Below are positions 1,719 through 32,679 of a DNA stretch of 64,000 nucleotides, piece by piece. The translations under genes and the position numbers were made by a program. Every line of letters begins with the position of its first letter. Within the stretch, counting starts at the first letter, position 1. The notes beneath the pieces were generated by a model. That model ran no database searches. It saw only the letters and a program-made list of their open reading frames with translations, and had not been told where the DNA came from. Source of the DNA: Nitrososphaerales archaeon (lineage in GTDB: Archaea; Thermoproteota; Nitrososphaeria; Nitrososphaerales; UBA213); NCBI GenBank assembly GCA_965197925.1, contig CBDAOC010000019.1:160001-224000 (forward strand), given 5' to 3'.

Positions 1719-1763
1719 AATTATTTACTATACTTAAATACGTCTGTAAGAACCACTAGAATA
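1719..1763 (+). promoter_or_regulatory. Conserved promoter of leader-family copy A (TATA box CTTAAATA at 1733-1740)
   Basis: Homologous YTTAAATA-containing segment precedes all five family members. Confidence 0.6.
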
Positions 1764-2339
1764 ATGAACAAACTAACAATACCAAGCATATTGGCAGCAA
1801 CAGTATTGATAGCAGGAATATTTGCCTTGATGCCGGTTGAGAAGGCAAGCACGGTGCACACTGGTATACAAAATACGTTAACAACTGAGTTGACGAAGGT
1901 ACAAAATAATATAAAAGATTTAGAAAATAAAATTACGGTATTGGAAGTAGAACAGGAAACTGATAGTGACCTGGACAGTGGAGACAAGTTCACGTTAGAT
2001 TGTACGGAAGAATTTGCAGTAATATCTATTTTTGCAGGATTGACGGGAGATGCTGGTACCAGTACCAGCCTCGCTGTCTCAATTGGAGGCGAAGATATTG
2101 GTATGCCAGTTGCTCTGGCAACTAATGGGTTCAAGGAATTAGTTGAAGAGGTTAGAAGACCTGAACCTGGAAGGGCTTTTATTGCAGTAGCAGACGAGGA
2201 CGTGGTACTAACTGCTGCTGAAGCAGATGCTGATGATGGCAATGACGAAGAGGTGACCGTAACGGCTCAGGTACTGGTGTCAAAAGGTGGAAGCTGCACG
2301 TTTGAAAATATTGCAGCACTAGCAGCACCAAACGGATAA
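1764..2339 (+). CDS. Leader-family secreted/surface protein, copy A (leader + coiled coil + acidic beta-rich head with a Cys pair)
   Basis: 191 aa; N-terminus MNKLTIPSILAATVLIAGIFALMPVEKASTVHTG; first 109 aa identical to 25193-25753. Confidence 0.85.
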   Translation: MNKLTIPSILAATVLIAGIFALMPVEKASTVHTGIQNTLTTELTKVQNNIKDLENKITVLEVEQETDSDLDSGDKFTLDCTEEFAVISIFAGLTGDAGTSTSLAVSIGGEDIGMPVALATNGFKELVEEVRRPEPGRAFIAVADEDVVLTAAEADADDGNDEEVTVTAQVLVSKGGSCTFENIAALAAPNG

Positions 2340-2345
2340 ACTATT

Positions 2346-2510
2346 TTTTTTCTAATATATTACTGGTTATTGGTAACAACATGCCAAATGATCTCATTAC
2401 AAATATATTGTTTTTACTCCGCACCGTAGCTAAAGCCTAGTCTTCCTTCCCCGATCCTCTTTCGTTGGTTTACCTGTTTTTGCTCAAGTATCTTATCTTC
2501 TATGTGCTTT
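2346..2510 (+). repeat. Dispersed non-coding 3-prime-flank element, copy 1
   Basis: TAATATATTACTGGTTATTGGTAACAACATGCCAAATGATCT...GGTTTACCTGTTTTTGCTCAAGTATC also at 5135-5284, 24836-25192 (rc) and 31288-31455 (rc). Confidence 0.8.
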
Positions 2511-3217
2511 TATGACGAATGTGATCCACATATCCCCTTCCTAACTCCATACTCTATCTCAGGGAAATCATATCCTATTCATGCATATGTTCTGTTTAAC
2601 TTTGGGCCTATCAACAACAATGCTATCTATTGTAGGAAAAGCTGATTTCATATCGTGTTTATTTGCTTCAGTAATTACAGACGAGAGAGGAATACCTCTT
2701 CTATCAACCAGCATGTGACGTTTGGTACCTAGCTTACCTCTATCCGTTGGGTTTGCTCCGGTCGTTTTCCCCCTAAATGTGCCTTCACTATGGCACTATC
2801 GATAGACTGCCAGTTCCATCCTATACCTTTCAGCTCATCATACCTATCGGCCAGCCTTTGCCATACCTTCTGAAACACTCCCTTCTTGACCCATTGTTGG
2901 AACCTAGCATGACATACAGAAGGAGATGCATATTCCTTTGGCACCTTCTTCCACTGGTACCCAGTCCTTAGAACAAACAGTAATTCCATCTAGCACTCTT
3001 ATGTATGGCACAGCAGGCCTCCAACTGTGCTAAGTTTCTTCCATATTGGCAGTACCCGTTTGAATTCGTTCCAGAGATCGTCTGGTATATGCCATATCGT
3101 TGGCATGCTCTTCTTCTTCTTATCCTTCTTGACCTTTCTCACAGTTTGAGGTAAGAGACGATCTAGATCTTTTTTGGTACAGGAAATAAGCTATATTGTT
3201 AATTTTAGTATAGGCTC
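2511..3217 (-). mobile_element. IS5 family (IS1031-like) transposase pseudogene with left TIR
   Basis: MPTIWHIPDDLWNEF...VLRTGYQWKKVPKEY...WQSIDSAIVKA...TDRGKLGTKRHMLVDRRGIPL; frameshifted; end AATTTTAGTATAGGCTC at 3217. Confidence 0.85.
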
Positions 3218-3251
3218 TAAATCAAAACTCTTTCTTGATTATAATAAAAAA

Positions 3252-4517
3252 ATGAGCCTAATGTTCAGGTATTGGATCGCAATAGTCGCGGTAGCATCAT
3301 TTGCAATAGGTATAGTGGCAGGTCCTATTGTAACTACTGCAACTCAAGATCTAGGTGTGGAACTAAACAGCACAGACAATATAGAGAAATCTAGTGATGA
3401 GATTAGTGATGAGATTAGTGATGAGATTAGTGATGAGATTAGTGATGAGATTAGTGATGAGATGAAGAAACTTAGTGATGAGATGAAGACGTTTGGTGCT
3501 GAGATAAATGAAATTAAGAACAAGTCAAATGAGGAACGGCCTGAGGTTTCTGAAGACATAGCAAACTGGGAAAGGCAGATACAAATTATTGATTTAAGGA
3601 TTGATAGGTTAAGCAATTTATCTGGAGATATAGATGAACTTAGGAAAGAGATTGCAAGCCTGAAGACACTACAGCAGTCACAATCGCTATCAGCATCTCT
3701 TGGGAGCTCTGAGTATAAAGTAGGAGATTCATTGATTCTGAATGGTGTTGGTTTCTCAAACAGATCGGTAAAGATCTCGTTGCTGGATTCCAACAGACTT
3801 ATCATCAGCGAAGGATCAACCACATCTGACTCATCTGGGAAATTTACATTTACAGTACAGCTCTCGACAAGTCTGTCGGATGGAAATTATATCATTAAAG
3901 TGAGCCAGGAAAGTGATGTAATCGAGGAACCCTTTAGAATAGTATCAACAATAATTCAGACTGAAGGATTTACACTTACAAGTGATGACAGGGAATATTT
4001 ACGTGGGGAAAAGGTTCTGCTTAGAGGTATCACTGATCCAGATGTATGGGTTGACTTTGACATATTTGACAGCAATAAAATACAACTTAGAATTTCAACA
4101 AAGTCAGACGCTGATGGAAGATATAACGTTGAGTATACAATTTCCACAAATGCTGTTATTGGTAAGTATGAAGTTAAAGCAACGGTAGGAGATAAGCAGG
4201 TTAATGTCAAATTCTCTGTAGTCCTGACAAAATCATCATCAGCCTCAACATCAAACAATCTAACAATTGAGACTGGCAGATCCCCATTCAACAGGGGAGA
4301 TTTCGTTACTGTAGTGGGTAAGGGCAAAGCAAATGAAAAGGTTACCATACTTGTAGAACCTCCAAGAGGGGATAACTTGTTACTTACAGTGAATCCTGAC
4401 AGCTCTGGAAACTACAGATCAGTGTTTGGCATAAAACAAGATACCTTCACAGGACAATGGAAACTTACAGCAAAGCAGGGAACTGATGCTGCTACAATTG
4501 ACATTACGGTGATTTGA
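3252..4517 (+). CDS. Membrane-anchored/secreted protein with coiled coil and about three Ig-like repeats
   Basis: N-terminal TM/signal, SDEI repeats, coiled coil, repeated S.D..G.F/Y...G.Y beta-sandwich units; start moved from 3174 (inside IS end) to ATG 3252. Confidence 0.75.
   Translation: MSLMFRYWIAIVAVASFAIGIVAGPIVTTATQDLGVELNSTDNIEKSSDEISDEISDEISDEISDEISDEMKKLSDEMKTFGAEINEIKNKSNEERPEVSEDIANWERQIQIIDLRIDRLSNLSGDIDELRKEIASLKTLQQSQSLSASLGSSEYKVGDSLILNGVGFSNRSVKISLLDSNRLIISEGSTTSDSSGKFTFTVQLSTSLSDGNYIIKVSQESDVIEEPFRIVSTIIQTEGFTLTSDDREYLRGEKVLLRGITDPDVWVDFDIFDSNKIQLRISTKSDADGRYNVEYTISTNAVIGKYEVKATVGDKQVNVKFSVVLTKSSSASTSNNLTIETGRSPFNRGDFVTVVGKGKANEKVTILVEPPRGDNLLLTVNPDSSGNYRSVFGIKQDTFTGQWKLTAKQGTDAATIDITVI
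3392..3484 (+). repeat. In-frame 12-bp tandem repeat TAGTGATGAGAT x6 plus one displaced unit
   Basis: Encodes (SDEI)5 SDEM KKL SDEM. Confidence 0.95.
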
Positions 4518-4749
4518 TATGTGCAAGTATGCTGCTGGCATATATGGAGGGTTCATGACTGGTGTTGTCGTTGCGTTTGTTGCAGCTCCTACTGTAGCGA
4601 GTCATACGACTGTTCAAGATGCATCCACAATATGGAAAAGGTTCATAAACGAAGTATATTACCAAAGATTTGCGTCATTCCATATGTGTAATAACAATTG
4701 ACCTACCAATTAATAATTTAGGAAATAATTATTCAATTAATAGGTAGTT

Positions 4750-5130
4750 GAGGCTTGGTCGTAATTAAGTAGCTCGAAACGATAAGATCAGGTTCCAATT
4801 TTCATTGGTAATGTGTTTAGCTGACTCGATACTTCGTATATTATTTTTGATTGACGTGATTCCTCGGCCAAAACCTCTTAGGAAGAGAGGTAAACCCTAC
4901 TATTCTCCCACAGTAATGGTGAGACGCTTCATCGTTAGAGTATGGCTAAGAATACCAAGCAACAATGCTTTGCATGAAACTTTTCGATAGACATGCCATG
5001 CAACAGGAAGGTAATGATGGCATGTGGTCTTGATAGGTTGCCAGACAGAAGAACATTCGACAGAAGGTTCAAGACCATATCAATTGACATAAGATCAAGG
5101 ATAGGTGCTATGGGTGTGCTCTTCATAAAA
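4750..5130 (+). mobile_element. 5-prime fragment of a GAGGCTTGG-ended DDE IS element
   Basis: End GAGGCTTGGTCGTAATT shared with 29952, 36783 and 56328, and in inverse at 18740; encodes KRGKPYYSPTVMVR...LPDRRTFDRRF transposase N-terminus with frameshift. Confidence 0.7.
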
Positions 5131-5134
5131 GATG

Positions 5135-5284
5135 GGTTGGCAGACCCAGCATCTATTGGGTACCACTAGGGAATCACCCGACACATCTTATAATATGTTA
5201 CCAATAATTGGTAACAATATGCTAAATGATCTTCCCCAATATTCCTTCATTGGTTCACTTGTTCTTGTTTCCCCAAGTATCCTG
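5135..5284 (+). repeat. Dispersed non-coding 3-prime-flank element, orphan copy
   Basis: Matches rc of 31288-31420; contains palindrome TGTTACCAAT-A-ATTGGTAACA at 5196-5216. Confidence 0.75.
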
Positions 5285-5360
5285 GAGCTTGCACGAAAAT
5301 CCTGTTTCAGGGATTGTACCCTGCCCTTATACCAGCAATAATTATACGGAATTATTGAGT
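5285..5360 (-). mobile_element. Right-end fragment of IS1031-like element
   Basis: GAGCTTGCACGAAAATCCTGTTTC...CCAGCAATAATTAT aligns with 28323-28390. Confidence 0.6.
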
Positions 5361-5361
5361 T

Positions 5362-5655
5362 GTGCAACAAGGCAGCTATTATGATAAAGAGACGCTACCT
5401 GCAATCAAGGTAAGGAAAACATCTTCAGTCAAAACGGATTGCTATCCCAGACGAAAAGCTGTTTTGGCACAATCGTGCAACTTGGATCCGTGGAGGCTTA
5501 GCGAAAGCTGTGGGCAACGATGGATTGTAAGATCCGTATTTTCATCATCCAAGCGGTTCTTTGGTGAGCATGCTACGGCACACAAATTCTGTAACATGAT
5601 AAAGGAACTAGGACTCAATGGCGTCTTTGTATAATTTGTTTGCAGGTGCTTGATT
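5362..5655 (+). mobile_element. C-terminal fragment of an IS5 (IS903-like) transposase
   Basis: PAIKVRKTSS...GQRWIVRSVFSSSKRFFGEHATAHKFCNMIKEL resembles the DDE C-terminal motif. Confidence 0.6.
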
Positions 5656-5894
5656 ATTAATGAATCATCATCTAGCGTGAACTGCAGAAATAATCATTCA
5701 GCTATGCAACACAACATCCTGCAACATCCTTAACCCATGCTGGTATTGCATCACCTTGAGAGCATGCATAGCCAAGACCAACGCTGAAGGCAACTGCAAA
5801 AATCAAGCAAAAAATAATGGTTTTCATGCTATCCCTCGAGGATTAGACAGAACCGGTGTCACTAGGAGGACCTAATTTTTGTGCACCAGGCCAG

Positions 5895-6359: not shown

Positions 6360-6476
6360 TGCATCTTACCTAGCTGCACGTTAATGCGTGTCGTATTTAT
6401 AATTTTAAACCGGGCTAGAGGAAGAAAAGGAACCGTTTTCTGATGGTTTAAGAGTGGCACAGGCAAAGTAACATGA

Positions 6477-13256: not shown

Positions 13257-13414
13257 ATATAACTATTCCACGACATCGCATTGACCCCAGATTTAACATC
13301 AAAACAAAACCCGTAAGATCCTGATTACTTAACAGAACCAAAACTAAAACAGCCCCGAAGTTTCCAATGGAAAAACTAATCTAGTTTGTTGCGCCTTTGT
13401 TGGTACGGATATCA

Positions 13415-13836
13415 ATGAGTAAATCCGAAATTAATACCTTGGATCTCATACCCGTAAGGATGCTGACACAGTATGTCTACTGTAAACGTTTGGCATACAT
13501 GGAGTGGGTACAGGGCGAATTTGCATACAATGCAGACGTAGTAGACGGCAAGTACCGGCATAGAAATGTGAACAAACCATCTGGAAGAAGAAAACTTGAG
13601 CAGGGCAGCACGGATGAAAAAATTCACGCAAGATCAATCACTTTATCAGATACAGAACTTGGACTTGTATCCAAGACGGATTTGTTGGAACTGGAAGGAA
13701 GCATTGCAACCCCAGTGGAGTATAAACGTGGAAGCACTCCTGAAAATCAAGATAGGGTATATGAGGATCATATCATACAGGTATGTGCACAAGGACTGCT
13801 ACTTCGTGCAAATGGGTACACGTGTACAAAAGGCAA
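13415..13836 (+). pseudogene. cas4: Cas4 domain (N-terminus of a type I-G Cas4/Cas1-type protein), truncated by deletion
   Basis: IPVRMLTQYVYCKRLAYMEWVQGEF...DLLE..PVEYKRG...QVCAQGLLLRANGY; C-terminal Cys triad and any Cas1 part missing. Confidence 0.85.
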
Positions 13837-15828
13837 TATGTCATAATAGGAACGCAAGACATGCTCATCTCAGGCGCATTGAATCGCGCATATGGGAACA
13901 ATCCAAATGTATGGCCAATCATCTTTGGTTTACTCAACAATGACAGCATGTGGGTTATGGATGAGGTTCAGATTATGGAAAATGCTCTGCCTACGTCGAT
14001 ACAGCTAGATAAATTTCGAGATCAGTTTGAAACATATGGGCCACATAAAACAGTATGGATGTCTGCCACAATAAATCCTGATTGGCTAGAGACTGTTGAC
14101 TCTCCAAAGGGCAGTCTGAAGATACACAATCTTGAAGAAGCAGACAGCAATGATGAACTCGAAACACGTAACAAGGCGAATAAAACCCTTCACAAAGCGC
14201 CAATCACGTTAAAAAAGGAATACAGTAAAAAAGACGTAGAAAAGATGCTAGAATTACACAAAAAGGGTACTACAACTGCAATAATGGTAAACACAGTAAA
14301 AAGGGCGCAAGATCTGTATAGAATTTTATCAGGACAAGCCGACTGCAAGTTGATTCATTCAAGATTTAGGACTGCAGAACGGAATGAATTAAACAAATGG
14401 ATAAGCAATTTAAAAGAGAATGAAGATAAAATTATTGTTTCAACACAAGTACTTGAAGCAGGTGTGGATGTCTCTGTTAGAATGATGATTACGGAGGTTG
14501 CGCCTTGGGCTAATTTGGTTCAAAGATTTGGAAGGTGTAATAGACGTGGAAAACTGCCAGCTGGAGATGTGTATTGGATAGACATTGACAAAAATTATCC
14601 GCCATACAGCGAGGATGATCTCACACACGCAAAAAACAAACTAGACAAGCTGGAAGACAAGTCCATATCGCCTAGCGAATTGCGAGACATTGAAGAACAA
14701 AAATTCTTCGATGCCGTACTGCGCCGCCGAGACATGATTAATTTGTTTGACACTGCGCCTGACCTGTCTGGCAATCACACTGACGTATCTAGGTTCGTAC
14801 GCAATATGGAACAGCAGCTAGATGTGAGTGTGTTCTGGCGCGATGGATGTAATTGTAAATATGACAAAAAGGACAGATTCAAACCCGAAAGGGATGAGAT
14901 ATGCAGCGTACCAATATCCGATCTTAGAGAATTTCTCAAAAAGAAGAGCGTATATGGATATGTTTGGGATTATGCGGATAGAACATGGGAAGAAGTTTAT
15001 CATACGGATCTATTGCCCGGACAAACTGTCATGTTGGATAGTGGGATTGGCGGATACTCCAAGACCTATGGCTGGGATGGCAAAAGCAACGACCGCGTAG
15101 ATGTTGTAGGAAAACCACAACAGGTGCCAGAGTCACATGATAGTGATCATACATCACAATTACGGATACCGGTAACGTTAGGAGATCATACCAAACATGT
15201 TCTGTGTGAAATAGATCTTTTTTTGAAAAACATTTCATATTTGGATGATGGTGTCAAAAATGCCCTTCGCACAGCAGCAAGATATCATGATGTTGGAAAG
15301 GCTCACAGCGTGTTTCAGGAAACGATGAAAAAAGGCATCTGCGATGAAAGAAAAAATGAAGGCAAGGTTTGGGCAAAGACTCAAAAGATGTCCAGACACA
15401 GTATATCGGGTTTCAGGCATGAGGTTGTAAGTGCATTGGCATATCTCAAACAAAAAGATAAGCTCGATGAGGAATTAAGAAACCTAGTTGCATATCTCAT
15501 AATGTCGCATCACGGAAAGGTCAGGCTTTCATTAAGAAATTTTTTCAAGAAGGAACGCACAAAGAAAGATAAGGAATATCTATTTGGCATAAAAACAGAC
15601 GGAGACATGCTGCCAAAATTCTCCAGTGACGATGTATCCATTGAAGAGACGCGTATTGATATGTCGTTGGCTAGCATCGGAAGAGATGAATCAGGAAATT
15701 CTTCATGGACAGAACGTGCAATCGCGTTGCGTGACAAGTATCATCCGTTTCGTCTTGCATATCTGGAGATGTTGATCAGGAGAGCAGATTGGCTTGCAAG
15801 TGCAAAAGAAAACGAGGAGAAATGTTGA
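13830..15828 (+). pseudogene. cas3: Type I-G Cas3 helicase-nuclease with C-terminal HD domain, lacking N-terminus (no Walker A)
   Basis: IGTQDML, DEVQ, MSAT, VNTVKRAQ, HSRFR, TQVLEAGVD, QRFGRCNR, then H...HDVGK...FRHE...SHHGK...RRADW at the C-terminus. Confidence 0.9.
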
Positions 15829-17951
15829 TGAACCAACACCTACTAGAAGGATGCAGGACAACTCCGGTATCCAACTATCTCAAGGCCCTGGGACTGTTCA
15901 GGATTGTATCAAAAAAAGATCCCGGAAGTACGGCCTGCTGGAAGAACGATAATTTTGTTCTTGAAACTGAGATGAGCAAGGAGGAGATCATGGAATTTTT
16001 GTTAAATAAATACAGCCCAACTCCAATAATTAGTCCATGGAGTTTTAATAAATTTGAAAAAACTCGTGATAAACTCAAGGATTTAATTGAATTAGAACGG
16101 TTCGAACCATATAAAAAAACAGTTGATTGTGTTCGTGACGTATTTAATAAGTTACATGGCATTCATAAGATAGAAAAAATTTCTAAAAACGAAATAAACG
16201 AAAAAATAAAACTGTCGCTCTTGAAATTATGTCGCAACTATCTTCCGGATGAGGCTGTACCATGGCTTGATGCTACTTTTGTAATTGAAGCAACAAGCAG
16301 ACGTAGTTTTGCTCCGATACTGGGTACAGGCGCAAATGACGGGAATTTTGACATGGCGGAGAATTTTGTTAAATGTATCCACAAGATATTTGGATCTGGA
16401 GGAGAAAACAATGCTAAATCCAAGGAATGGTTAGAATCTGCATTATTTGGTAATGTCGTTGAATTAGATGAAAGATCAACAACAGGCCATGATCCTGATG
16501 GATCAGGGGGTCCAAATTCAGGAATGGGTTTTGAAGGCAAGTCTTTGTCTAATCCCTGGGGTTATGTTCTGATGATTGAGGGCACCGCATTATTTGCAGG
16601 CAGTTTATCAAAACAGCTGTCTGCCAACAATACGGGCAAAGCCGTGTTTCCATTTACTGCTGGTACTTCAAGCGCAGGATACGCTACGGCATCCAACGAA
16701 GACAGAGATGGGATAAAAGACTCATCATCTAGGGGCGAAATTTGGTTGCCAATATGGGAAAACCTCACAACATATAAAGAAATAAAATATGTTTTTAATG
16801 AGGGGAGAATCCAACTTGGAAAAAAACACGCGAAGACAGGAACCGAGTTTGCACGTGCCATCATATCTCTGGGTACGGAACGCGGAATATCAAAATTTCA
16901 GCGGTTCTGTATTTTGAAAAGAAAAGGCAAGTGCTACCTTTTCACAAACGCCGGCAAAATAACCGTGGCAGACGAACCCGTTGCCAGTCTGTTGGACGAA
17001 TTAGACAAATGGTATAACCCAATCATCAAACAAAGCAAAAAGAATGCATCCGAGAAACTTGTACGCTTGGTAAAAAGTCTTGATGAATCTATAATGAAAT
17101 TTTGTACCTATAGAAAAAAACAGAATCTGCTACAATTATTAATAATGATAGGAAGGCTTGAGAGATACATATCTGGAGATGCTGACTTTGAACCATTAGA
17201 AAAACTGTCAGACAGATGGTTGGTTGAATGTTATGATGGATCCGCAGAATTCAGATTAGCCGCATCTATCGCGTCGATAAAACATGCGAATGGCGTAGGC
17301 AGCATACGGGAAAATTTAGAAAATGTAATACAAAAAAATGACGGTTGGAAACATAAAAAAAATTCAGTATCATTTGTATGGAAAGAAGACGATAACTTGC
17401 TGAAAAATATGAGTCGTGTCTTGCAAAGACGCAGTCTGGACGGAAAGATCAAGTCACATGACATCATTCCAATCAAAGGAATCATACCTGCTAAAATTGA
17501 TGACATCACTAAATTTCTCAATGGTGATTTGGATACAAGAAAAATAAGCGATCTCATACTCCCATTATCGATAGTAGACGTGACACCTGAAACAGAATAT
17601 TCTTGGAAAAATAACCTCCAAGAGGACATTAGTTTGCCATTACCGGAGGCATATATGATTATGAAGTTAATTCATCCTTCAGATGAAAAAGAAAACATCC
17701 CATATGATATGTCTGTGCTAAATTTGCTGTTTGCGGGACTAATAGATAATGCATATGCAAAAACAGCATACATGCTACATGCACATGGATTATCGCCTCT
17801 TAGATATTCTAAAAAAACAGGCAATGCCAAGAGCACGTCTCTTTCTGACGTTGTGAAGGAATATTTAGTAGCCTCATTACTTTTTCCAATTTCAGGTAAG
17901 GACAGAGAATTAATGTTAAAATCAGTAATAGTAGATCACACTTGGGCCTAA
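15828..17951 (+). CDS. cas8u1: Type I-G CRISPR large subunit Cas8g/Cas8u1 (Csx17)
   Basis: LEGC...YLKALGLFR, YSPTPIISPW, PILGTGANDGNFD, NPWGYVLMIEG, RGEIWLPIW, EFRLAASIAS; TGATG coupling to cas3. Confidence 0.88.
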   Translation: MNQHLLEGCRTTPVSNYLKALGLFRIVSKKDPGSTACWKNDNFVLETEMSKEEIMEFLLNKYSPTPIISPWSFNKFEKTRDKLKDLIELERFEPYKKTVDCVRDVFNKLHGIHKIEKISKNEINEKIKLSLLKLCRNYLPDEAVPWLDATFVIEATSRRSFAPILGTGANDGNFDMAENFVKCIHKIFGSGGENNAKSKEWLESALFGNVVELDERSTTGHDPDGSGGPNSGMGFEGKSLSNPWGYVLMIEGTALFAGSLSKQLSANNTGKAVFPFTAGTSSAGYATASNEDRDGIKDSSSRGEIWLPIWENLTTYKEIKYVFNEGRIQLGKKHAKTGTEFARAIISLGTERGISKFQRFCILKRKGKCYLFTNAGKITVADEPVASLLDELDKWYNPIIKQSKKNASEKLVRLVKSLDESIMKFCTYRKKQNLLQLLIMIGRLERYISGDADFEPLEKLSDRWLVECYDGSAEFRLAASIASIKHANGVGSIRENLENVIQKNDGWKHKKNSVSFVWKEDDNLLKNMSRVLQRRSLDGKIKSHDIIPIKGIIPAKIDDITKFLNGDLDTRKISDLILPLSIVDVTPETEYSWKNNLQEDISLPLPEAYMIMKLIHPSDEKENIPYDMSVLNLLFAGLIDNAYAKTAYMLHAHGLSPLRYSKKTGNAKSTSLSDVVKEYLVASLLFPISGKDRELMLKSVIVDHTWA

Positions 17952-20424: not shown

Positions 20425-20489
20425 GTAGGAAATTCAGACTCATCATAATAAAACATTTTCCTTCTTATATGTCAAATTTTCGTTATTAT

Positions 20490-21444
20490 GGCTCTGTAGA
20501 AACCATGGATTTTAGCCCATTGTATATCGAATTGCACCATTGGATCAATTTGTTACGTGCCATGCATGCCTATGCATGAAAGAATCACGATACGCCAAAC
20601 TTGCAAAAACAATACTTGATGTCTTGACAAGGGCTGGAGTACCGCTCTATACGCACGGGAAGGGCAACCACATCCATACGGTCTGGCAGCATATCATCCT
20701 GCCAGCATTCAGGCAGTATGAAGGGAAGGGCTACAGGAGGTTTGTGGAATGGCTGCGTGAAGCATGCCATCCCGGAATGTTTATGCAGCTAGGCAGGGTG
20801 CCACATTATACAACGCTCCAGGAGTTTGCCTCAGGAATCAACGGCACCTTGATGTACAGAATAGTATCCTCATTCATGCTTCCTACCAAGATCAGGAAAT
20901 TGTTCGTAGGTACGGATGCATCAGGATTCAGGTCGGGCAATGCATCGTCATACCATACGGACAGAAAAGGAAAAAGTACATCAGGCCATCGATGGGTGCT
21001 GAATTGAAGGAACAGACAGCATGTTCATTAAAGACAAGAAGGGCTCCCAAGCATGATGCCATGGATTTCAGGGCCAATCATGGAGAGAGCGTCAAGCATG
21101 ATGCCACTCCATCGTTGTAGCATACAAGGGTTATGATAGCGAAGATGGTGAAGCAAATCATGAATTTGTGCGAAAAGAACCTGATGCTGCCAGTATCATG
21201 CCTGCCTGATATGAAGATGTTCCAGTATGGAGAACATGTGGAAGATACGGGAAGCAAATGAAGAGGAGATTCTATAACCAACTTTACCATCAGAGGAACA
21301 AGAATGAGACTATCAGTGATAAAGAGGATGTTTGGTGACTGTATAGCATCAAGAATGGTGAAGATGCAGAACAGGGAAGATGTTAAGTAATAGCCTGCAA
21401 CATGCATGGATTGACTGTATTTATGGCATGGTTTCTACATAGCC
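20490..21444 (+). mobile_element. Full-length IS5-family element with degenerate transposase
   Basis: TIRs GGCTCTGTAGAAACCATG / CATGGTTTCTACATAGCC (17 of 18 match); PHYTTLQEF, GTDASGF, KGYDSE motifs across frameshifts. Confidence 0.88.
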
Positions 21445-21504
21445 CACTGCTCATTATGTTTAAATATCTCCGTAAGAAAGACATCTGTTAGATTAAGGAT
21501 GATA

Positions 21505-23227
21505 ATGAATAAACTAGTAATACCCAGTATATTGGCAGCAACAGTATTGATAGCAGGAATATTTGCGTTCATGCCAGTAGAGAGGGCAAGCACGGTGCAC
21601 ACTGGCCTAGAAGCCAAGATGGAGGCAGTTGAAAATGCAATCAAGGGTGAAATTAATAAGAACAGATTTTTCCTGGAGACCGTTAACCTGAGTGATCTTG
21701 ACGATGGGACTACGGTAGTAGTCGCTGATACTACTCCCCACGGAATGGGCCAGGTTCACATAGCCGCAACCCTTCCGGTCGCAGACGTTGGTGCCGATGG
21801 ATGCACTGATGAGGAGCCATTGGTGGATGTAAAGGCGGGTCAGGCTCCAAATCTTGATATAGTGCTGACGGGTGCCCATAACACGGGAATTGCCGGAAGA
21901 GCGGAATATCAATACGAGTGATAATGCGTTTCCCACTGGCACCGATATGTGCGTATTCCATAGGACCATAACTGTCGCAAATGTCGGTGCAGACCTGCTG
22001 ACCGACATAGTAGTAGAAGGAAAGGTGGGAGCACTACCGGCAGACGCCTTCATTACCGTGTCAGGCACGGGCTTGATGGATGACGCCATGGGGCTATTGG
22101 GTGAAATATCAATTGGATTACTTACTCCACGAACAGGAGACATTGCTTCTTTTGGCGAAGAAAATTTGGCAAGCATTAGGCTGGGAGTAGTTGATTTTAA
22201 TAAACATCTCGAAGGGATGGGAGCTCCATGGAATCTCAGAATTGTTGAGAAGGACACTGCAACTGACCCCGACACTGCATTAGAAAAACTAAAGGAGCTT
22301 GATGCTGAAGGAATTGAAATTGTAATTGGTCCTGCAACTAGTGCAAATGTTGAAAGAATCAAAGGCTATGCAGATTCTAATAACATCCTACTTGTTAGCA
22401 CCGGTTCTACTTCACCTAAACTAGCTTATCCAGGTGATAACGTGTTCCGCTTGGTTCCGGATGACAATAAACAGGGAACTGCACTTGCAGAGCTAATACA
22501 ATCTGAAGGAATTGACGTATTGGTTCCTGTGTGGAGGAATGACCTGTGGGGTAATGGATTAAAAGCGGTCGTGGCTGATTCATTTGTGGAAAAAGGTGGC
22601 CAAGTAGATGATGGAATTCGTTACGATCCTGAATCTCTGGATACTTCTACAGTATCTACAGTAACTTCTCAGTTAGCCGGTATAGTACAAGGATATGTTG
22701 ATGATGCTAATGTTGGTGCAGACAATGTCGCTGTTTTATTTGTAGGATTTGACGAGATTTTAGAATTCCTAAAGGAAGCTTCAGACCACGATGTCTTAGA
22801 TGATGTAAGATGGTTTGGATCAGATGCCAATACAAAACAACAACTTCTAATAGATGATTCTACGGCATTAGATTTTTCAACCAGAGTGCAATTTATATCG
22901 CTCCAATTCACGGCATCTAAAAACGAAATCTATGATAGGGTGAAGGCTGACCTCGGGAGTGATCCTAGCACATTTGCTTACGCCTCATACGATGCCGTAT
23001 GGGTGATTGGACTTACAATGCTTGATACCCAAAGCACCGATGCCCTTACCATAAAGGGAAAGCTTCCAGAAATTGCAGGATCCTATACTGGTGCAATAGG
23101 ATCGACAAGACTGAATGCGGCAGGAGATTTGGCACAAGCTGATTATGATATATGGGGAATCAGAGGCGGAGAATGGAAACTATTGGGAAAATACACCCAA
23201 AGCACTGACAGTGTGGTACTAACATAG
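21505..23227 (+). pseudogene. Leader-family copy B: leader + beta domain + branched-chain amino acid-type ABC substrate-binding domain, one +1 frameshift near 21903
   Basis: ORFs 21499-21921 and 21872-23227 join to align with intact copy D; IGLLTPRTGD, IVIGPATS, FRLVPDD, YDAVW. Confidence 0.85.
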
Positions 23228-24830: not shown

Positions 24831-24835
24831 TAGAA

Positions 24836-25192: not shown

Positions 25193-25753
25193 TTATCCGT
25201 TTGGTGCTGCAATATTTTCAAACGTGCAGCTTCCACCTTTTGACACCAGTACCTGAGCCGTTACGGCCACCTCTTCGTCATTGCCATCATCAGCATCTGC
25301 TTCAGCAGCAGTTAGTACTACGTCATCGTCTGCTACTGCAATAAGAGCCCTTCCAGGGCTTCCAGCCTCTCCAACTAATTCCTTGAACCCATTAGTTTCC
25401 AGATCAACTGGCATACCAATATCTACGCCTCCAATTGAGACGGCGAGGCTGGTACTGGTACCAGCATCTCCCGTCAATCCTGCAAAAATGGATATTACTG
25501 CAAATTCTTCCGTACAATCTAACGTGAACTTGTCTCCACTGTCCAGGTCACTATCAGTTTCCTGTTCTACTTCCAATACCGTAATTTTATTTTCTAAATC
25601 TTTTATATTATTTTGTACCTTCGTCAACTCAGTTGTTAACGTATTTTGTATACCAGTGTGCACCGTGCTTGCCTTCTCAACCGGCATCAAGGCAAATATT
25701 CCTGCTATCAATACTGTTGCTGCCAATATGCTTGGTATTGTTAGTTTGTTCAT
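25193..25753 (-). CDS. Leader-family secreted/surface protein, copy C (paralogue of copy A)
   Basis: 186 aa; identical to copy A for 109 aa, then clustered substitutions and indels. Confidence 0.85.
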   Translation of the reverse strand: MNKLTIPSILAATVLIAGIFALMPVEKASTVHTGIQNTLTTELTKVQNNIKDLENKITVLEVEQETDSDLDSGDKFTLDCTEEFAVISIFAGLTGDAGTSTSLAVSIGGVDIGMPVDLETNGFKELVGEAGSPGRALIAVADDDVVLTAAEADADDGNDEEVAVTAQVLVSKGGSCTFENIAAPNG

Positions 25754-25885
25754 TATTCTAGTATTCTTGCAACTTTATTTAAGCATGATAGACAATTGGT
25801 CTAGAATCCCCTGCACGAAATTGTCAGAACTTTCTAGAATAATGTAGAACATTGTGGAATCAGGTTTAATCGCTAGTGTTGCTGG
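25754..25885 (-). promoter_or_regulatory. Conserved upstream region of leader family (copy C)
   Basis: TTCTAGAAAG...TTCTAGACCAATTG...CTTAAATA...AAGAAT shared with 28204-28322 and 32275-32400. Confidence 0.7.
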
Positions 25886-26250: not shown

Positions 26251-26415
26251 AATGGACCGAGCGATCGTGGAAGTTTCACCAGTCGCTTAGTTTTGGGATG
26301 ACTTGTGGTTGAACAAGATGTAAGGCATGCCCTAAAGTTGGGAGGCTCTTTGCTGGCAAGGGCGTCTTTAAAGGAAAGCCGCAAGAATTACTGGTACACC
26401 CTGAGCCAAGCGTAT

Positions 26416-28203
26416 CTAGGAACCAGTTAGTACCACACTGTCATTGCTTTGGGTGTATTTTCCCAGCAAGACCCACTCACCGTTACGAATTCCCCATATA
26501 TCATAATCAGCTTGACCCCGATCCCCCGCATCATTTAGTATTATCCCCTCCATTCCACCAGTGGCACCGTCAAAATTTTCTGCAATCCTAGGCAGTATTC
26601 TTTTTATCATATCAACATCGGTGGACTGGGTTTCAAGCATTGCCAGGCCCACAATCCATGGTGCATCATAGGAGGGATGCACATACGTACTGGGTATTCC
26701 ATCAACCGCCTCAGATACATGATCATTCACACGATGGTATCTCTCGCTATTAGATACTGCCACCAGCGTTGTAGTAAACCGTACATTTGTGGCAAAAATA
26801 TCCTCTAATCCTATTGGATCATCAACTAGCCCACGCTCCTTAGCGTTAGCCGCAGGGCCAAACCATCTTACATCATCTAACACATCGTGCCCCGAAGCCG
26901 ACTTCATGAATTCTACAATTTCACCAAAGCCCAAGAATAGAACAGCTACCTTTTCCGGACCACGGTCATCAACGTGCCCCTGTACTTCCTGTGCCAGCAA
27001 TGAAGTTTTTGCCGAAAACCCGGGGGACTCCGGGTCGTAAGGAATTCCTTCGCCAACCTGGCCTACACGTCCTTCAAACGAATTGATTGTAGACTCACTT
27101 AGGCCCCTGCCCCATACATCGTTCCTGTACACAGGGATCATTACTTCTATTCCCTCATGATCTAACAGCTTGGCAAGTGCAGGGCCTTGGTTGTTATCAT
27201 CTGGTATCAGACGGTATACACTGTCACCTGCTATGGCAAGTGAGGGAGCAGTCGAGCAGCAGCTGACAAGCAGCATGTTGTTTGAATCAGCATAATCCTT
27301 GACCTCCCTGACATTGGCACTGGTCTCAGGGCCAATTATTATGTTGATTCCCTTGGCATTTAATACCCTTATCTTTTCCAGTGTAATAGCAGGACTTGTT
27401 TCAGAGTCTTCTGAAACCAGTTCAATGCTCCATGGCTCCCCAAGTCCGGCCAAGTGATCGTTAAAGTCGGCAACACCTAGTTCCGTGGCTATCCGATTTT
27501 CTTTACCAAGATCGGATAAATCTCCTGTCAGTGGAAATATGCCGCCAATTTTTATCCTGCCGGACAGTCCCATGCCATCATCCAGCATGCCCGTACCTGA
27601 CACGGTAATGAAGGCGTCTGCCGGTAGTGCTCCTACATCGCCTACTACTACTATGTCGGTCAGCTTCGTTACGGTTTCTAAATCATCCTCATCTGGAGTA
27701 CCTGCATTTGATTCTCTGATCAATTCATTTACTATTGCAAGATCTATAGTCGTATGGAATACACACATATCGTCAGTAGAGCCAAATGGTGTACCGATGT
27801 TCACTCTTCCGTTAATCCCCGTGTTTTCCTCAGCCCCCAGCACTTTTATGAGAGCTTCGCCAGCCTGACCTGCAAGTACATCCACCAATGGCTCCTCATC
27901 AGTACATCCATCGGCACCAGTGTCTGCAACCGGAAGGGTTGAGGCTATGTGAACCTGGCCCATTCCGTGGGGAGTAGAATCAGCGACGACTATTGTACTA
28001 CCATCGGTAACGCCGCCCAGGTTAACGGTCTCTAGGAAAAATCTGTTCTTGCGAATTTCGCCTTTAACTGCATCTTCAACCGCATCTATCCTAGCTTCTA
28101 GGCCAGTGTGCACCGTGCTTGCCCTCTCTACTGGCATGAACGCAAACATTCCTGCTATCAATACTGTCGCTGCTAATATGCTTGGTATTACTAGTTTGTT
28201 CAT
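26416..28203 (-). CDS. Leader-family copy D: leader + beta domain + branched-chain amino acid-type ABC substrate-binding domain (intact)
   Basis: MNKLVIPSILAATVLIAGMFAFMPVERASTVHTG; IKIGGIFPLTGDLS, IIIGPETS, STAPSLAIAGDSVYRLIPDD, SYDAPW. Confidence 0.9.
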   Translation of the reverse strand: MNKLVIPSILAATVLIAGMFAFMPVERASTVHTGLEARIDAVEDAVKGEIRKNRFFLETVNLGGVTDGSTIVVADSTPHGMGQVHIASTLPVADTGADGCTDEEPLVDVLAGQAGEALIKVLGAEENTGINGRVNIGTPFGSTDDMCVFHTTIDLAIVNELIRESNAGTPDEDDLETVTKLTDIVVVGDVGALPADAFITVSGTGMLDDGMGLSGRIKIGGIFPLTGDLSDLGKENRIATELGVADFNDHLAGLGEPWSIELVSEDSETSPAITLEKIRVLNAKGINIIIGPETSANVREVKDYADSNNMLLVSCCSTAPSLAIAGDSVYRLIPDDNNQGPALAKLLDHEGIEVMIPVYRNDVWGRGLSESTINSFEGRVGQVGEGIPYDPESPGFSAKTSLLAQEVQGHVDDRGPEKVAVLFLGFGEIVEFMKSASGHDVLDDVRWFGPAANAKERGLVDDPIGLEDIFATNVRFTTTLVAVSNSERYHRVNDHVSEAVDGIPSTYVHPSYDAPWIVGLAMLETQSTDVDMIKRILPRIAENFDGATGGMEGIILNDAGDRGQADYDIWGIRNGEWVLLGKYTQSNDSVVLTGS

Positions 28204-28322
28204 TAATTGATCAGTCATTCTTACAGGCGTATTTAAACATAATCAGCAATTGATCTAGAATTACCTGTATGAAATTATTAGAGCTTTCTAGAATTATGTG
28301 AAATATCATGGAATTAAATTAA

Positions 28323-28395
28323 GAGCCTATCCGAAAATCCTGTTCCATAGATTGTACGCTGCTCTTATGCCAGCAATAATTATATCGGAATGATG
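28323..28395 (-). mobile_element. Right-end fragment of IS1031-like element
   Basis: GAGCCTATCCGAAAATCC TIR; rc encodes ...YNLWNRIFG*. Confidence 0.7.
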
Positions 28396-28574
28396 GAAAA
28401 TAAATATAGACATCTCTTTCTGGGTGTGATTTTATCAATTTTGTAGAAAGCGCACGCTATAGTAATTCCAAAATCATGTACCTTAAAAGAATGTGATGCA
28501 ATGAGCCGAGCTGCAGAAATTTATCCCTTAAGACATGTAATCCAAAAAGAGTTATTTCATCTTAAAGAAGATAA

Positions 28575-28810
28575 ATTCAATGGAGAAATTATCAGAAAAT
28601 ATTTTCAAGCTAAATAGCTGAGGGTTTGAGCCTTGCCAGAATAGAGAAATGCATAAACATGATGAAACAAATACCTAGACTCTTTCGCAAGCCGTTCACC
28701 AATGCTACAAAGGAAGACATTGTAGAAATTGTTGGCAAGATAGAGCAGAAGAACTGTACTGATTGGATTAAATAGGATTATAAAATTATTCTGAAACATT
28801 TCTACCAATA
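28575..28810 (+). pseudogene. N-terminal (SAM-like) fragment of an archaeal tyrosine integrase
   Basis: AEGLSLARIEKCINMMKQIPRLFRKPFTNATKEDIVEIVGKIEQKNCTDWIK*DYKIILKHFYQ. Confidence 0.7.
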
Positions 28811-28831
28811 ACAAGGGAGGATTCGAGAATA

Positions 28832-29125
28832 TTGTCTTCGTTAATGAAGCATCTTCCTGGAAAGTATAGAACCGCTAAGCCAGACAAGATTTTACTGGGT
28901 GAAATAGTGAGTTGTATTATTAGTAATAGAAGTAGGGTTAGTGATGCAGATGAAAAAACAATAGTTTATCTGATTGACAAATATGGGGCATTCTTTCTAG
29001 ATTTGGAACTTCTCATAGAGGAGATATCGAAATACCTTGATTTTTTTGGAAAACATTTTATCACTAGGGAGGAGCTGGACAAGCCCGAATACTCCTTTGC
29101 ACAAACATTAAAGAAGACCTTATAA
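28832..29125 (+). CDS. Hypothetical protein or gene fragment
   Basis: 97-aa ORF with plausible composition; no motif recognised. Confidence 0.3.
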   Translation: MSSLMKHLPGKYRTAKPDKILLGEIVSCIISNRSRVSDADEKTIVYLIDKYGAFFLDLELLIEEISKYLDFFGKHFITREELDKPEYSFAQTLKKTL

Positions 29126-29131
29126 TCAAAA

Positions 29132-29600
29132 TTAAGATGTATTACCTGAAGTGCCAACAAATACTGTTTGGATGATTTTTTCAAGTGTAGACGCAACAAA
29201 ATCTGGATGTTGCTTGACGTAACCAACGAATTTTCTCATTTTACTCTGCCGTTTCGGGTCCTGAGATATTTCCTTAACTTCGGGATCATCAGTTGATAAA
29301 GTCTTCAAAGCTTGGTCGGCTATACTTAATACAACATCAATTCCATAATTCGTAATTTTTATGTGAATAGGATGGGCCTTACCTAGTGCGGCTACACCTT
29401 CTATGAGACCACCGTTCTTCAAATAGATTACCTCAGCGTAAGCAAAATCTGAATTAACTTCTTGTAATTCAGACTCCTTTATTATTGAATCTGTCTCATG
29501 ATAATTTGCTGGCTGACCACCATAATATTTCTGATAAAGTGTATGTAAGATCCTGAATCTAATTTCTTGATGAATCCATCTTTCTAATGATGAAATATTG
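29132..29600 (-). CDS. Hypothetical protein, possibly winged-helix, longer than the ORF track shows
   Basis: Frame stays open upstream of 29422: ISSLERWIHQEIRFRILHTLYQKYY...AYAEVIYLKNGGLIEG...IKITNYGID; no ATG/GTG/TTG at the 5-prime end. Confidence 0.5.
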
Positions 29601-29951
29601 ATAATTATAAACTTTTAGAAGGAACTTTAGGATATTCACGCCAGCACCAACTCGCGAATAAGCAATATAGCCGCAATTTAACCTTACAACATATCTACTT
29701 ACAACTTCCACACTAATCTATAGTTCTATAGAAATGAATTGACATTGAGTGAATTGGTTCGAGATATCATTTAATATTGTAACAAGGTGTTGTATGACGT
29801 CCTGTCCTTTACATTTTGATTGTTATATCCCATTCACTTTAACTTCTGGGCTAGCTTCTAGAAGATCTAAACTATTATCTTCTTTTCTCAATTCATAATG
29901 TTTGAACAACGAGGAATATTTACAAATTGTTTAATTATATGAGAATTATAT

Positions 29952-30000
29952 GAGGCTTGGGCATAATTTAGTTCGAAACGATCAGATCAGGTATTCTATG
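29952..30000 (+). mobile_element. Isolated left end of GAGGCTTGG-ended IS
   Basis: GAGGCTTGGGCATAATTTAGTTCGAAACGATCAGATCAGG. Confidence 0.6.
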
Positions 30001-30079
30001 ATAGTATGGTGTGAGTAAATATAAGCATTGCAAGCACTATGAGCTTCTATCCATAATCAAGGAGAAGGATGAACATTAT

Positions 30080-30334
30080 TTAGCTTTCCAATAGAGCTAA
30101 TAGATCCTTATGTTTACGTAGAATACTTTTACCTCTTGCAGTCAACAAATTGTAGATTCTACGCTTCCTCTTAACACGGTTAACAAAGCCCCTCTTAACA
30201 CAAAACCGTAATACATCATGTATTCCAAAGTCATCAAAGTCCTCTAGCAACTCACGCGTATATTTTTCTTGTTGCAACCTATCCAATACCTTGCCTACTT
30301 GATTCAAGCGTTCATACTTGTCCGCACTTATCAT
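30080..30334 (-). CDS. Small winged helix-turn-helix protein
   Basis: VLRFCVKRGFV...RIYNLLTARGKSIL wing motif. Confidence 0.6.
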   Translation of the reverse strand: MISADKYERLNQVGKVLDRLQQEKYTRELLEDFDDFGIHDVLRFCVKRGFVNRVKRKRRIYNLLTARGKSILRKHKDLLALLES

Positions 30335-30577
30335 ATATAGTTATGTTATAACCTAACCTTTATAGCTTCCCGCATATACAGTAGATCGACAAGTGTAATT
30401 AGGATGTTCTGTTAAGTTTCAGAAATGTGTTATCAAGCTATCTATTCTCTATCTTAATCTGCTTCAATATTTCCTTAGCTTGGCTGGGCTGAAAACTCCT
30501 TCCTTGACCAATTCTTTACTACAACATATACTTCTTCGTTCTTGGCACCATCCATTTTTGCCAGATTCATTACATTC

Positions 30578-30757
30578 AGTTTGATATGCCCTGCCTAGTA
30601 ATTTCCTTCATAACAAGACCAGCTAACAGTCCTATCAAAGCACCTAATGCTAAATTTTTTACCCATAAATATTCTTGGATCTTCTTCAACTGATCACGCA
30701 CTTGTTTCAATTTATCATATTCTGTCTTCGGGACTCGTAAATTAACATATGGAATAT
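30578..30757 (-). pseudogene. Small RHH-like/membrane protein cut at its 5-prime end by an IS
   Basis: PYVNLRVPKTEYDKLKQVRDQL...ALGALIGLLAGLVMKE; abuts IS end at 30760. Confidence 0.35.
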
Positions 30758-30759
30758 TA

Positions 30760-31286
30760 GAGCCTATCCTAAAATTCTAGCTGATAGTTAACGATTGGTA
30801 GAAATGATATCATTTAGAATGCAAGAATATTAGTTCATACTGTCAGGTTTAGTTTTCTTACTAATGATATAATTAGTATTGTAGATAGTAGATACTAGAA
30901 ACAGTTGCATTAACGTGTTTATGACACTACCAATATATCGCTCTATGCTATTAGGCACTGCTATTAGGCAGTCAGCAAATTCTGCTAGCACCTGATAATT
31001 TTCCTCCTCGGATTTTTCGACACCTTCCACTGGCATCCGGTTCTTAAAACATGCAGTATTCCATCCCAGCACTTCTAAATGGCACAGCCGCCCTCCAACT
31101 GTTCTTGCCGGTTTCCCTAGTGGCAACACTAGCTTGAACTCTTTCCATAGATCGTCTGGTGTATGCCGTATGGCCGGCATGATCATCTTCTTCCTAGATT
31201 TTCTCACAAATTTAGCTAGAGATAACGGTTCTAGAACTTTTTCGGTATAAGCAATTAGGCTATGATGTTAATTTTCGGACAGGCTC
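30760..31286 (-). mobile_element. Internally deleted IS1031-like element with both TIRs, flanked by TA
   Basis: TA-GAGCCTATCCTAAAATT...AATTTTCGGACAGGCTC-TA; MPAIRHTPDDLWKEFKLVLP N-terminus, then unrelated internal sequence. Confidence 0.8.
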
Positions 31287-31287
31287 T

Positions 31288-31455
31288 AGGATGCTTGGAA
31301 AAAGCAGGTAAACCAATAAAGGAATATTGGGGAAGATCATTTAGCATATTGTTACCAATGATCAGTAACATATTAGGAAATGTGTCTAGTGGCCCTCTAG
31401 TGATATTCAGTAGATGGGCGGCCTGATCAAGCAGAGTTCAAACCAAGTTGCATAA
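31288..31455 (-). repeat. Dispersed non-coding 3-prime-flank element downstream of copy E
   Basis: TGTTACCAATGATCAGTAACA core and CTGATCAAGCAGAGTTCAAACCAAGTTG shared with the copy C flank. Confidence 0.75.
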
Positions 31456-31599
31456 ATAAAAAAAGGGTATCCTGCCTAAGGATAATCCTAGTAAATACCA
31501 CCGGGGTCTACTGACGGACAAAACCACCGTATACTGCCGGGGTTTACATACCCTACTAACGAGCAGTCTGCAGTTATTGGCGTTTGCATGGTAACCATT

Positions 31600-31735
31600 A
31601 CTACGAGATGCCGTGGAGCTCCCATCTCCTCGAGATGTTTATTAAAATCAACTACTCCTACTTGGAGCTCTCCCAATTTTCTTCGCCATAAAAAGTCTCC
31701 TGTTAGTGGAGTAACTAATCCAATTGTTGTTTCAC
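31600..31735 (-). pseudogene. Stub of an ABC substrate-binding domain formerly fused to copy E
   Basis: GETTIGLVTPLTGD...GVVDFNKHLEEMGAP aligns at DNA level with 22100-22235 of copy B. Confidence 0.75.
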
Positions 31736-32274
31736 CCAGTTGTTGTTTCTCTTAGCGTACAAGTTCCACCGCTTGACGCTTGAACGGCAAGTAATATGAC
31801 TGCTTTTTCGTCATCGTCATCATTTGTTTCACTAGCGGCTAGTATTACGTCATCGGTGGCCGGCGCTACAATATTCTCTGGATATATTACTCCAGTAGAG
31901 TTTGGAGCATAACTTATTACTTTATTTGGAGAATTAAATACAATATCCTCATCCTCTTCATTAATTCTGTTCTCTCCAACTAAGACATGGAGGGAGTTCT
32001 CATTTAGAGTTCCCTTCATACTAACAATGACTTTAGTTACTACAAAGCCTGTAGTACAGTCTATCACGTACCTGTCTCCGTCGTCCTGATCCTCATCAGT
32101 GTGTTCTAATACACTCAATGAGATAATTTTACTTTCTAATTCTTCTTGTAAAGTGTCTATCTTAGCTTCTAGACCTGTGTGCACCGTGCTTGCCCTCTCT
32201 ACCGGCATCAAGGCGAATATCCCTGCTATCAATAGCGTTGCTGCCAATATGCCTGGTATTGCCAGTTTGTTCAT
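31732..32274 (-). CDS. Leader-family copy E (leader + coiled coil + A/C-type head, divergent)
   Basis: MNKLAIPGILAATLLIAGIFALMPVERASTVHTG; DGDRYVIDC...GGTCT parallels SGDKFTLDC...GGSCT of A/C. Confidence 0.85.
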   Translation of the reverse strand: MNKLAIPGILAATLLIAGIFALMPVERASTVHTGLEAKIDTLQEELESKIISLSVLEHTDEDQDDGDRYVIDCTTGFVVTKVIVSMKGTLNENSLHVLVGENRINEEDEDIVFNSPNKVISYAPNSTGVIYPENIVAPATDDVILAASETNDDDDEKAVILLAVQASSGGTCTLRETTTG

Positions 32275-32679
32275 TAATTTCCGATTCTTGGAGTTTTATT
32301 TAAACATAATGAACAATTGGTCTAGAATTTTCTGGAATAATGTAAAATATCATGGAGTTAAATTTAATCGCTGGTGTTATTGGTACGGGCATGCAATTAC
32401 TCCAAACCGGTATTTCTTGCATTCCTCGCACTCCAAAACGGAGGTCGGAATGATGAATGCATTGCCGGAAGGATGAAAAGATTGCAACATGTTCATTCTT
32501 AAATTGAATTTTGTTTTTGAATTACACCTTTCTTGTTACTTCTTAAATTCAGGAACCTAGAGCGAACGTACCCGAAATAAAACTATCCGTCAATGGGAAG
32601 GAATGGCCAGACCCTTGACGGGGGAGACTTTTTAGAATTTCCGCCTGATCCTTATTTGTCACCAATGTAATTTGTGGGT

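Follow-up and report, generated by a model that had tools for sequence, protein, structure and literature searches.

Surface proteins in which a constant N-terminal part is joined to mosaic variable parts are familiar from Neisseria pilE/pilS, Borrelia vlsE and Campylobacter fetus sapA, and systems of the pilE/pilS and vlsE type combine one expression locus with promoterless silent cassettes. In tapA-sipW-tasA of Bacillus subtilis and the TasA superfamily (AbpA, AbpX, Tafi, CanA and thread), a dedicated peptidase serves jelly-roll matrix proteins, according to the available portions of PMC9245690 and bioRxiv 10.64898/2026.01.04.697558. In the lpl tandem cluster of Staphylococcus aureus, a conserved block in each paralog is the site of recombination, and the trees of the modules that flank it conflict (PMC2568036, available part). 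LIV-I (livKFGHM) of sponge ammonia-oxidizing archaea has been described with an operon-encoded livK (PMC13552627, likewise in the part available). We analyzed a window of 64,000 nucleotides (G000:C19:160001-224000) from a 2.9-Mb archaeal genome, G000, that is rich in insertion sequences (IS) and is estimated to be 98.7% complete with 5.4% contamination. An earlier note on this DNA had described five genes (A to E), starting at 1764 (+), 21505 (+), 25753 (-), 28203 (-) and 32274 (-), that share a leader in front of different heads; all five starts and the leader were confirmed. We propose that the leader probably directs variable surface spikes of Nitrosomirales-type archaea into an export route of their own, similar to that of SipW. 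A co-occurring signal peptidase I paralog and an accessory membrane protein explain its constancy better than the cassette shuffling that the note had put forward.

A 40-position profile of the leader matched 726 clusters at 50% identity, 439 of them at E 1e-10, and the family had no sequence match in Pfam, NCBIfam or PDB. Among the 191 proteins fetched, which were the best-scoring of these matches, 189 could be anchored on the motif; positions 1 to 35 were conserved, including a hydrophobic stretch that is kept residue by residue, and the entropy exceeded 3 bits from position 36. The fetched proteins had a median length of 170, and 179 heads fell into 58 BLAST components, which bears out the idea of a constant N-terminal export module with variable cargo. 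Pfam domains were recognized in the cargo of 5 of 30 members scanned (two binding proteins, one ice-binding domain and two sets of TSP3 repeats), an SBP_bac_3 domain is found among the cargo of the family, and a profile comparison of the two head types of the window aligned the leader only. Named records that carry the leader have Ca. (Candidatus) Nitrosomirales and uncultured Nitrosopumilales titles. A viral origin of the family was considered and set aside: there were 16 pattern matches in viral contigs, none of which was confirmed, and Atlas matches scored only 0.76-0.77.

Scanning G000 and its relatives with a leader profile extended the family well beyond the window. G000 has 16 matches with E values of 3e-24 to 3e-7, far beyond chance when the next best is 0.17, and nine of them lie within C19:145-192 kb; the genomes of relatives hold one to eight copies each, scattered. 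Ten of the 16 copies have open frames (G1, G4, A, C, D, E, two identical copies of E, H and K), and six are broken or degenerate, mostly with the 5' end kept. PF13458 domains occur in five genes of the genome: four are leader copies, and the other is livK, beside the LIV permease genes on C17. The cargo of copy K is a different binding domain, PF00497. Conservation of the leader DNA above expectation was not found. Leaders compared within G000 were identical at 543 of 808 four-fold sites (67%); in comparisons with leaders from five other genomes the value was 49-65%. Between A and E the identity was 9/14 in the leader and 15/21 in the head, counts that are small for each pair (14-24 sites). 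Four-fold identity in the leader thus does not exceed that in the heads, and the leader is conserved as protein, not as a DNA cassette copied in recent times. Close pairs such as A and C are homogenized at the DNA level.

The evidence for dedicated export comes from neighboring and co-occurring genes. One type of signal peptidase I gene was present in 15 of 43 metagenome loci with leader genes, or in 12 of the 19 that have at least 1.5 kb downstream, and a gene for a small membrane protein was present in 16 of the 43; in locus L070, two peptidase genes flank one leader gene. The G000 paralog lies at C20:845539-846012, separate from the housekeeping enzyme at C20:807568, and the accessory gene, which encodes an 80-amino-acid (aa) two-helix membrane protein, at C19:243550-243771. 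The paralogs formed their own clade (support 97/95, in a tree whose bootstrap is not fully settled) and carry the motif S-D/T-S-M, as opposed to S-G-S-M in housekeeping enzymes; the peptidase next to the leader gene in locus L014 is a long branch outside this clade. Across 401 genomes of the order, the paralog scored at least 178 bits in eight (G000, G001, G002, G003, G006, G007, G008 and G371) and at most 99 in all others. Strong matches to the accessory protein occurred in the same eight genomes, with five weak matches elsewhere, and the gene was found in none of 350 other genomes in a sample of the phylum. Strong leader matches (E <1e-8) were confined to six genomes, all within these eight, while four more genomes had weak matches only. 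In family f12, which differs from that of G000 and is represented by 112 genomes, G371 alone is a strong case, with eight leader matches, three peptidases and the accessory gene, and one of its peptidase genes lies directly behind a leader gene.

In one clade (L087:3289-4724, L075, L084, L096 and L114), leader, accessory and peptidase genes stand beside a divergently transcribed S-layer gene. Docking on a Nitrosopumilus-type S-layer was entertained as a general explanation and dropped, because the S-layer gene neighbors 15 of 43 loci that apparently form one clade and has no tblastn match in G000.

Signal peptidase I cut sites follow the (-3,-1) rule. Columns 28 to 32 of 197 aligned leaders are A in 194, variable, T in 196, V in 186 and H in 197, and this pattern suggests that the enzyme likely cuts after A28-x-T30 and leaves a mature Val-His N terminus. 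A cut after T30 is favored over one after A28 because of the same rule: for A28, the residue at -3 would be E, Q or D. Cleavage, anchoring and function are what we infer, and the scheme would run as follows. The leader would act as a specialized signal peptide for Sec export and would be cut by the signal peptidase I paralog together with the two-helix accessory protein, much as SipW serves TasA. The mature chains would assemble into a homotrimer through a stalk of variable length and display a variable head, mostly a jelly roll. In the sponge-associated lineage, the family has expanded to 16 copies and become fused to amino-acid-binding domains, which probably catch amino acids outside the membrane. 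Ordinary homologous recombination and gene conversion, anchored in the leader and in further conserved stretches, would bring promoters, heads, loops and binding domains into new combinations and would also leave many broken copies. As a speculation, the invariant His at the second position of the mature chain may bind a metal or a partner. A bolder, three-part version strikes us as rather doubtful: three exposed Val-His ends at the base of the trimer would form a metal-bound foot on the accessory protein or on a hub, any cargo placed behind the 35 residues would be displayed, and continuing gene conversion and inversion between copies in the sponge symbiont would vary the tip loops and mount amino-acid-binding proteins on stalks. 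Loss of an anchor by the native livK was rejected as a reason for the fusions, as livK has its own hydrophobic N terminus.

Structure models are consistent with a trimeric spike. The model of A (predicted local distance difference test, pLDDT, 81) has helices at residues 6-22 and 26-54 and a nine-strand head, and that of D(1-204) (pLDDT 86) is similar. In fold searches, head 1 gave a best Z of 9.1 (root-mean-square deviation [rmsd] 3.5, 113 residues aligned, 7dou) and head 2 a best Z of 7.0 (rmsd 4.0, 97 aligned, 7a02), with many TNF/C1q entries at Z 5.4-6.4 and no clear relative. Both models have a jelly-roll core, and some family members are without one. A(31-186) modeled as three copies scored 0.66, compared with 0.00 for the best control, at a mark that 20 of 30 solved pairs and 1 of 23 single chains reached; contact agreement between runs was at least 58% and pLDDT at least 70. 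The modeled interface consists of an in-register coiled coil (35-57) and head residues 58-62, 83-88 and 169-175, which supports a trimeric spike for A.

Several points weigh against dedicated export. By their shared neighbors, 13 of the 15 peptidase-adjacent loci apparently form one clade, L070 and L104 being the others, and the eight genomes that carry the paralog represent two lineages. In G000 itself, the peptidase and accessory genes both lie away from the leader genes, and G003 (95% complete) and G007 (85%) have both genes and no strong leader match. The profiles were partly built from these same genomes (the leader from G000, G002, G006 and G008, the accessory protein from G002, G003, G006, G008 and G371, the peptidase from G000), and G371 is outside both the leader and the peptidase profiles. 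The predicted cut site follows from the (-3,-1) rule. The three-copy job differs from the two-copy calibration of the tool, and coiled coils may pass because they resemble solved structures. Retention of a cleaved spike on the cell is something that the proposal does not account for.

The dedicated peptidase invites a second reading, in which the proteins are fiber subunits of the TasA superfamily that polymerize by donor-strand complementation after the dedicated cut. A peptidase with an accessory protein, a jelly-roll core and an acidic isoelectric point of ~4.05 all match the available part of section 9 of bioRxiv 10.64898/2026.01.04.697558, and in members with a short linker the first strand begins a few residues past the predicted cut. 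The structure models point elsewhere: the nine strands of A lie in one chain, a helix follows the cut site, the trimer is an in-register coiled coil with no strand exchange, and the jelly roll is missing in some members. When members and leaders were compared with Pfam and NCBIfam up to E 1, sequence to profile only, no match to PF12389 or to a SipW-cognate signal was found, and PF12389 was present in 0 of 5 genomes. TasA, AbpA and CanA were not among the 50 best fold matches, which does not exclude them. We did not file the family in the TasA superfamily, since sequence membership fails and donor-strand assembly is conjectural, and we consider fibers of this kind unlikely.

It is quite unlikely that the leader is instead an uncleaved membrane anchor, with its helix packed in the trimer and the paralog serving other substrates. 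Such an anchor would account for the residue-by-residue conservation of the hydrophobic stretch and for the two peptidase-bearing genomes without a strong leader match, G003 and G007, and it would keep the proteins fused to binding domains close to the LIV transporter (C17:96-101 kb). It does not fit the recurrent adjacency of peptidase and leader genes, the three peptidase copies of G371 or the two that flank a single leader gene in L070, nor does it explain the A-x-T pattern behind a helix-breaking proline.

The window genes themselves show how far the constant leader is combined with different parts. Gene A (1764..2339, +) encodes 191 aa, with the leader at residues 1-33, a predicted coiled-coil stalk at ~35-57 and a jelly-roll head of type 1 at 58-183, modeled as a homotrimer; its TATA box (1733..1740, +) lies in an upstream segment of type X, common to paralog G4 outside the window. 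Gene C (25193..25753, -; 186 aa; TATA box 25776..25783, -) is a near-copy of A in inverted orientation and differs upstream. Gene D (26416..28203, -; 595 aa; TATA box 28230..28237, -) is intact and consists of leader, stalk, jelly-roll head of type 2 (~54-204) and a LivK-type binding domain (PF13458/PF01094) that is 66% identical to livK of the same genome. Gene B (21505..23227, +; TATA box 21459..21466, +) likewise joins the leader to head type 2 and a LivK-type domain of the G1 type, but its frame is broken near 21902 by a shift of +1, at the margin of the variable loop and at the junction of a G1-type stretch with a G4-type loop, which leaves a 138-aa open reading frame (ORF) and a separate 451-aa frame. 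The combinatorial cargo described earlier stands for D, while B is frameshifted. Gene E (31732..32274, -; 180 aa; TATA box 32297..32304, -) has a divergent head type 1, identical to that of A at 40 of 133 residues. The substrate-binding stub once assigned to E is not part of the protein: it is an out-of-frame relic (31605..31737, -) that derives from a binding-domain gene of the B/G1 type, of which it represents the 5' end, and that meets E at its stop (31732); it has small deletions and is untranslated. A 1,240-bp unit around E is 100% identical at two further assembly positions, one of which, E2, is 350 bp from a contig end; in runs X2 and X3, DNA depth over E exceeded that of the unique flanks by a factor of ~1.5-1.9, a weak hint of two, not three, copies. 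E as an IS-bounded unit was rejected, because the boundary motif has only two copies.

A YTTAAATA box lies 22-38 bases upstream of the start in all five genes, as the earlier note had seen, and the shared promoter segment it described shrinks to a block of only ~25 bp around the B recognition element and TATA box. Farther upstream, C, D and E are of one type and A is of another, while B has an IS end: a high-copy IS-like element (20489..21444, no strand assigned) stops ~14 bp before its TATA box. In related assemblies, a similar transposase end reads into head-1 genes (P0015 and P0016), suggesting repeated insertion before this promoter. Pairs of TCTAGA palindromes ~33 bp apart occur upstream of the TATA boxes of C (25790-25870) and D (28240-28320) and of paralogs G1, G2, H and J, and could be the site of a regulator. 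Sharing of the 3' flanks within A/C/E and within B/D also held, over 175 bp at 92.6% identity for A/C (2345..2511, +, behind A), 47 bp for A/E and 62 bp, including the last codons, for B/D, and the shared flank recurs at about ten other sites in the genome.

Recombination or gene conversion between copies, which the earlier note had inferred, is real and apparent in several comparisons. In the quartet G1/G4/B/D, 291 of 297 informative sites of the binding domain pair G1 with B, while the grouping in head 2 changes block by block (19 and 10 sites; p=0.001 in a runs test). Among quartets of six copies, 13 of 15 gave p <0.05, uncorrected, with scattered breakpoints. For 14 full-length fusions from this and other assemblies (P0204 omitted as truncated and B as broken), the head and binding-domain trees reject each other in the approximately unbiased (AU) test (p=0.004 and 3e-61), which does not agree with plain duplication and divergence; one loop of head 2 is hypervariable among these 14 alleles. 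A and C have zero differences from -8 to +263 and diverge upstream, P0001, P0002 and P0196 of other assemblies are novel combinations of A and C segments, and all four combinations of upstream type and head type occur. RadA-like genes are present in G000.

These patterns could also reflect programmed switching, in which conversion of the pilE/pilS kind or inversion between A and C or B and D changes the displayed head. Both pairs are inverted, P0001 and P0002 lie on one 2.63-Mb contig of another assembly and look like near-reciprocal A/C recombinants, and the hypervariable loop and the four upstream-head combinations would be expected. Yet every one of the five window genes has its own TATA box and start, breakpoints are scattered, and relatives hold scattered copies. 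No site-specific recombinase was found among the 44 window ORFs scanned, in agreement with the earlier note; in G000 as a whole there was no resolvase (PF00239) match, and the two weak tyrosine-recombinase (PF00589) matches are on other contigs (C18 and C1). An unrelated five-copy control family was equally mosaic (5 of 5 quartets, p 0.001-0.0002), a four-copy ATPase family was mosaic at p=0.006, and IS families gave no clear signal. This control family consists of 443-aa paralogs with sharp mosaic blocks at G000:C19:38660, 426034 and 457299 and C20:35241 and 1018466. RNA runs labeled sponge metagenome contain 17-28% of sampled G000 words, and in the one run compared (X11), there are contigs over B, C, D and E, and 14 of 30 bins lack depth, every one of them between or outside these genes. 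The X11 contigs differ from D and E by 0-3 positions over 300-560 bases, exact matches to each included; being assembled, they are uninformative on expression level. A search for alternative junctions in short assembled contigs, over a stretch without A, listed joints with 23-100 letters on the short side, which fit other paralogs. Switching is therefore highly unlikely, the dedicated cassette shuffling akin to pilin antigenic variation that had been suggested for this locus was not supported, and the copies most likely exchange DNA by ordinary recombination.

It is hardly credible that assembly of a mixed population produced the mosaics and the additional copies as artefacts: despite the contamination estimate, the position of E2 near a contig end and the fact that all listed depth at 21903 in X2 and X3 has the G4-type letter and not that of B, the same patchwork recurs in independent assemblies, long contigs from other runs differ from the unique flanks at 0-2 positions, and the family and peptidase results would be untouched.

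Other features of the window include a Type I-G CRISPR-Cas remnant at 13397-17951, with a cas4 fragment, Cas3g (model match from position 123 on) and Cas8g1/Csx17, and an SPFH/band 7 gene at ~35524-36938, within 1,415 bp that recur on C20 at 100% identity, next to a leaderless fragment of head type 1. Surface-type proteins with MG2 domains are encoded at 3174-4517 (weak SlaB match), 43700-45388 (matrixin-like domain) and 60282-61775, and a 203-aa protein with six stretches of RTX calcium-binding repeats at 56971-57582.

The analysis names a probable export route for a large unannotated family in a widespread, uncultured group of ammonia-oxidizing archaea, and the prediction can be checked directly, as it comprises one peptidase, one 33-residue signal and one predicted cut. 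One sponge-associated lineage has an enlarged set of these genes, with transcripts and with fusions to amino-acid-binding domains, a finding of relevance to mixotrophy and to contact with host or virus. The case also illustrates that swappable cargo behind an unchanging leader does not require a programmed switch. We found no description of the leader, peptidase and accessory system in the literature covered, from which subscription papers were mostly absent; for PMC10811736, on Nitrosomirales, the main text as available lacks the word peptidase, and no signal peptidase term was found in the 12 of 14 supplement files searched.

How the locus compares with known systems can now be stated. Type IV pilins have a class III signal peptide, and their genomes encode a platform protein, an ATPase and a prepilin peptidase. 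The earlier note was right that no class III prepilin site is present, as there is no basic-Gly/Ala site before the hydrophobic stretch; we rejected a pilin identity for this reason and because there was no match to a pilin or archaellin family and no platform gene. PF00482 was not found in G000, at its estimated completeness, and is present in 6 of 8 relatives; the type IV ATPase match in G000 is borderline (25 bits over 120 positions), and a prepilin peptidase match is present. Like pilE/pilS and vlsE, the family has mosaic alleles and incongruent module trees; unlike them, it has no single expression site or promoterless cassette array. Site-specific inversion systems and shufflons have an adjacent recombinase and a fixed crossover site, and neither was found here, the breakpoints being scattered. 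As in lpl, in the part of that source available, a conserved block serves as homology and the trees of flanking modules conflict, while here the copies are archaeal and dispersed in both orientations and the main conserved block is the 5' leader. G000 has a LIV operon like that of the LIV-I lineage, so far as the available description goes, and differs in its four additional livK-type domains, which stand behind leader, stalk and head 2 and away from the operon. The modeled heads resemble the phage KHP40 cement protein, TNF/C1q, the BclA C-terminal domain and Ena subunits as jelly rolls, with middling scores and 4-18% identity, a likeness to trimeric heads that we read as a common fold and not as a family assignment. 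Compared with the TasA superfamily, in the portions of its literature available, PF12389 has no sequence match here, and the accessory protein is an 80-aa two-helix protein and not DUF5305; the substrates are many, scattered and unrelated past residue 35, and A models as a coiled-coil trimer and not as a donor-strand polymer. Linkage of a dedicated peptidase to substrate genes, as in TasA/SipW, is seen in the metagenome loci and in G371, with adjacency absent in G000. On the same available evidence, sipW-tasA and abpX-SPI share with this system secreted acidic jelly-roll proteins, a dedicated signal peptidase I and, often, an accessory membrane protein.

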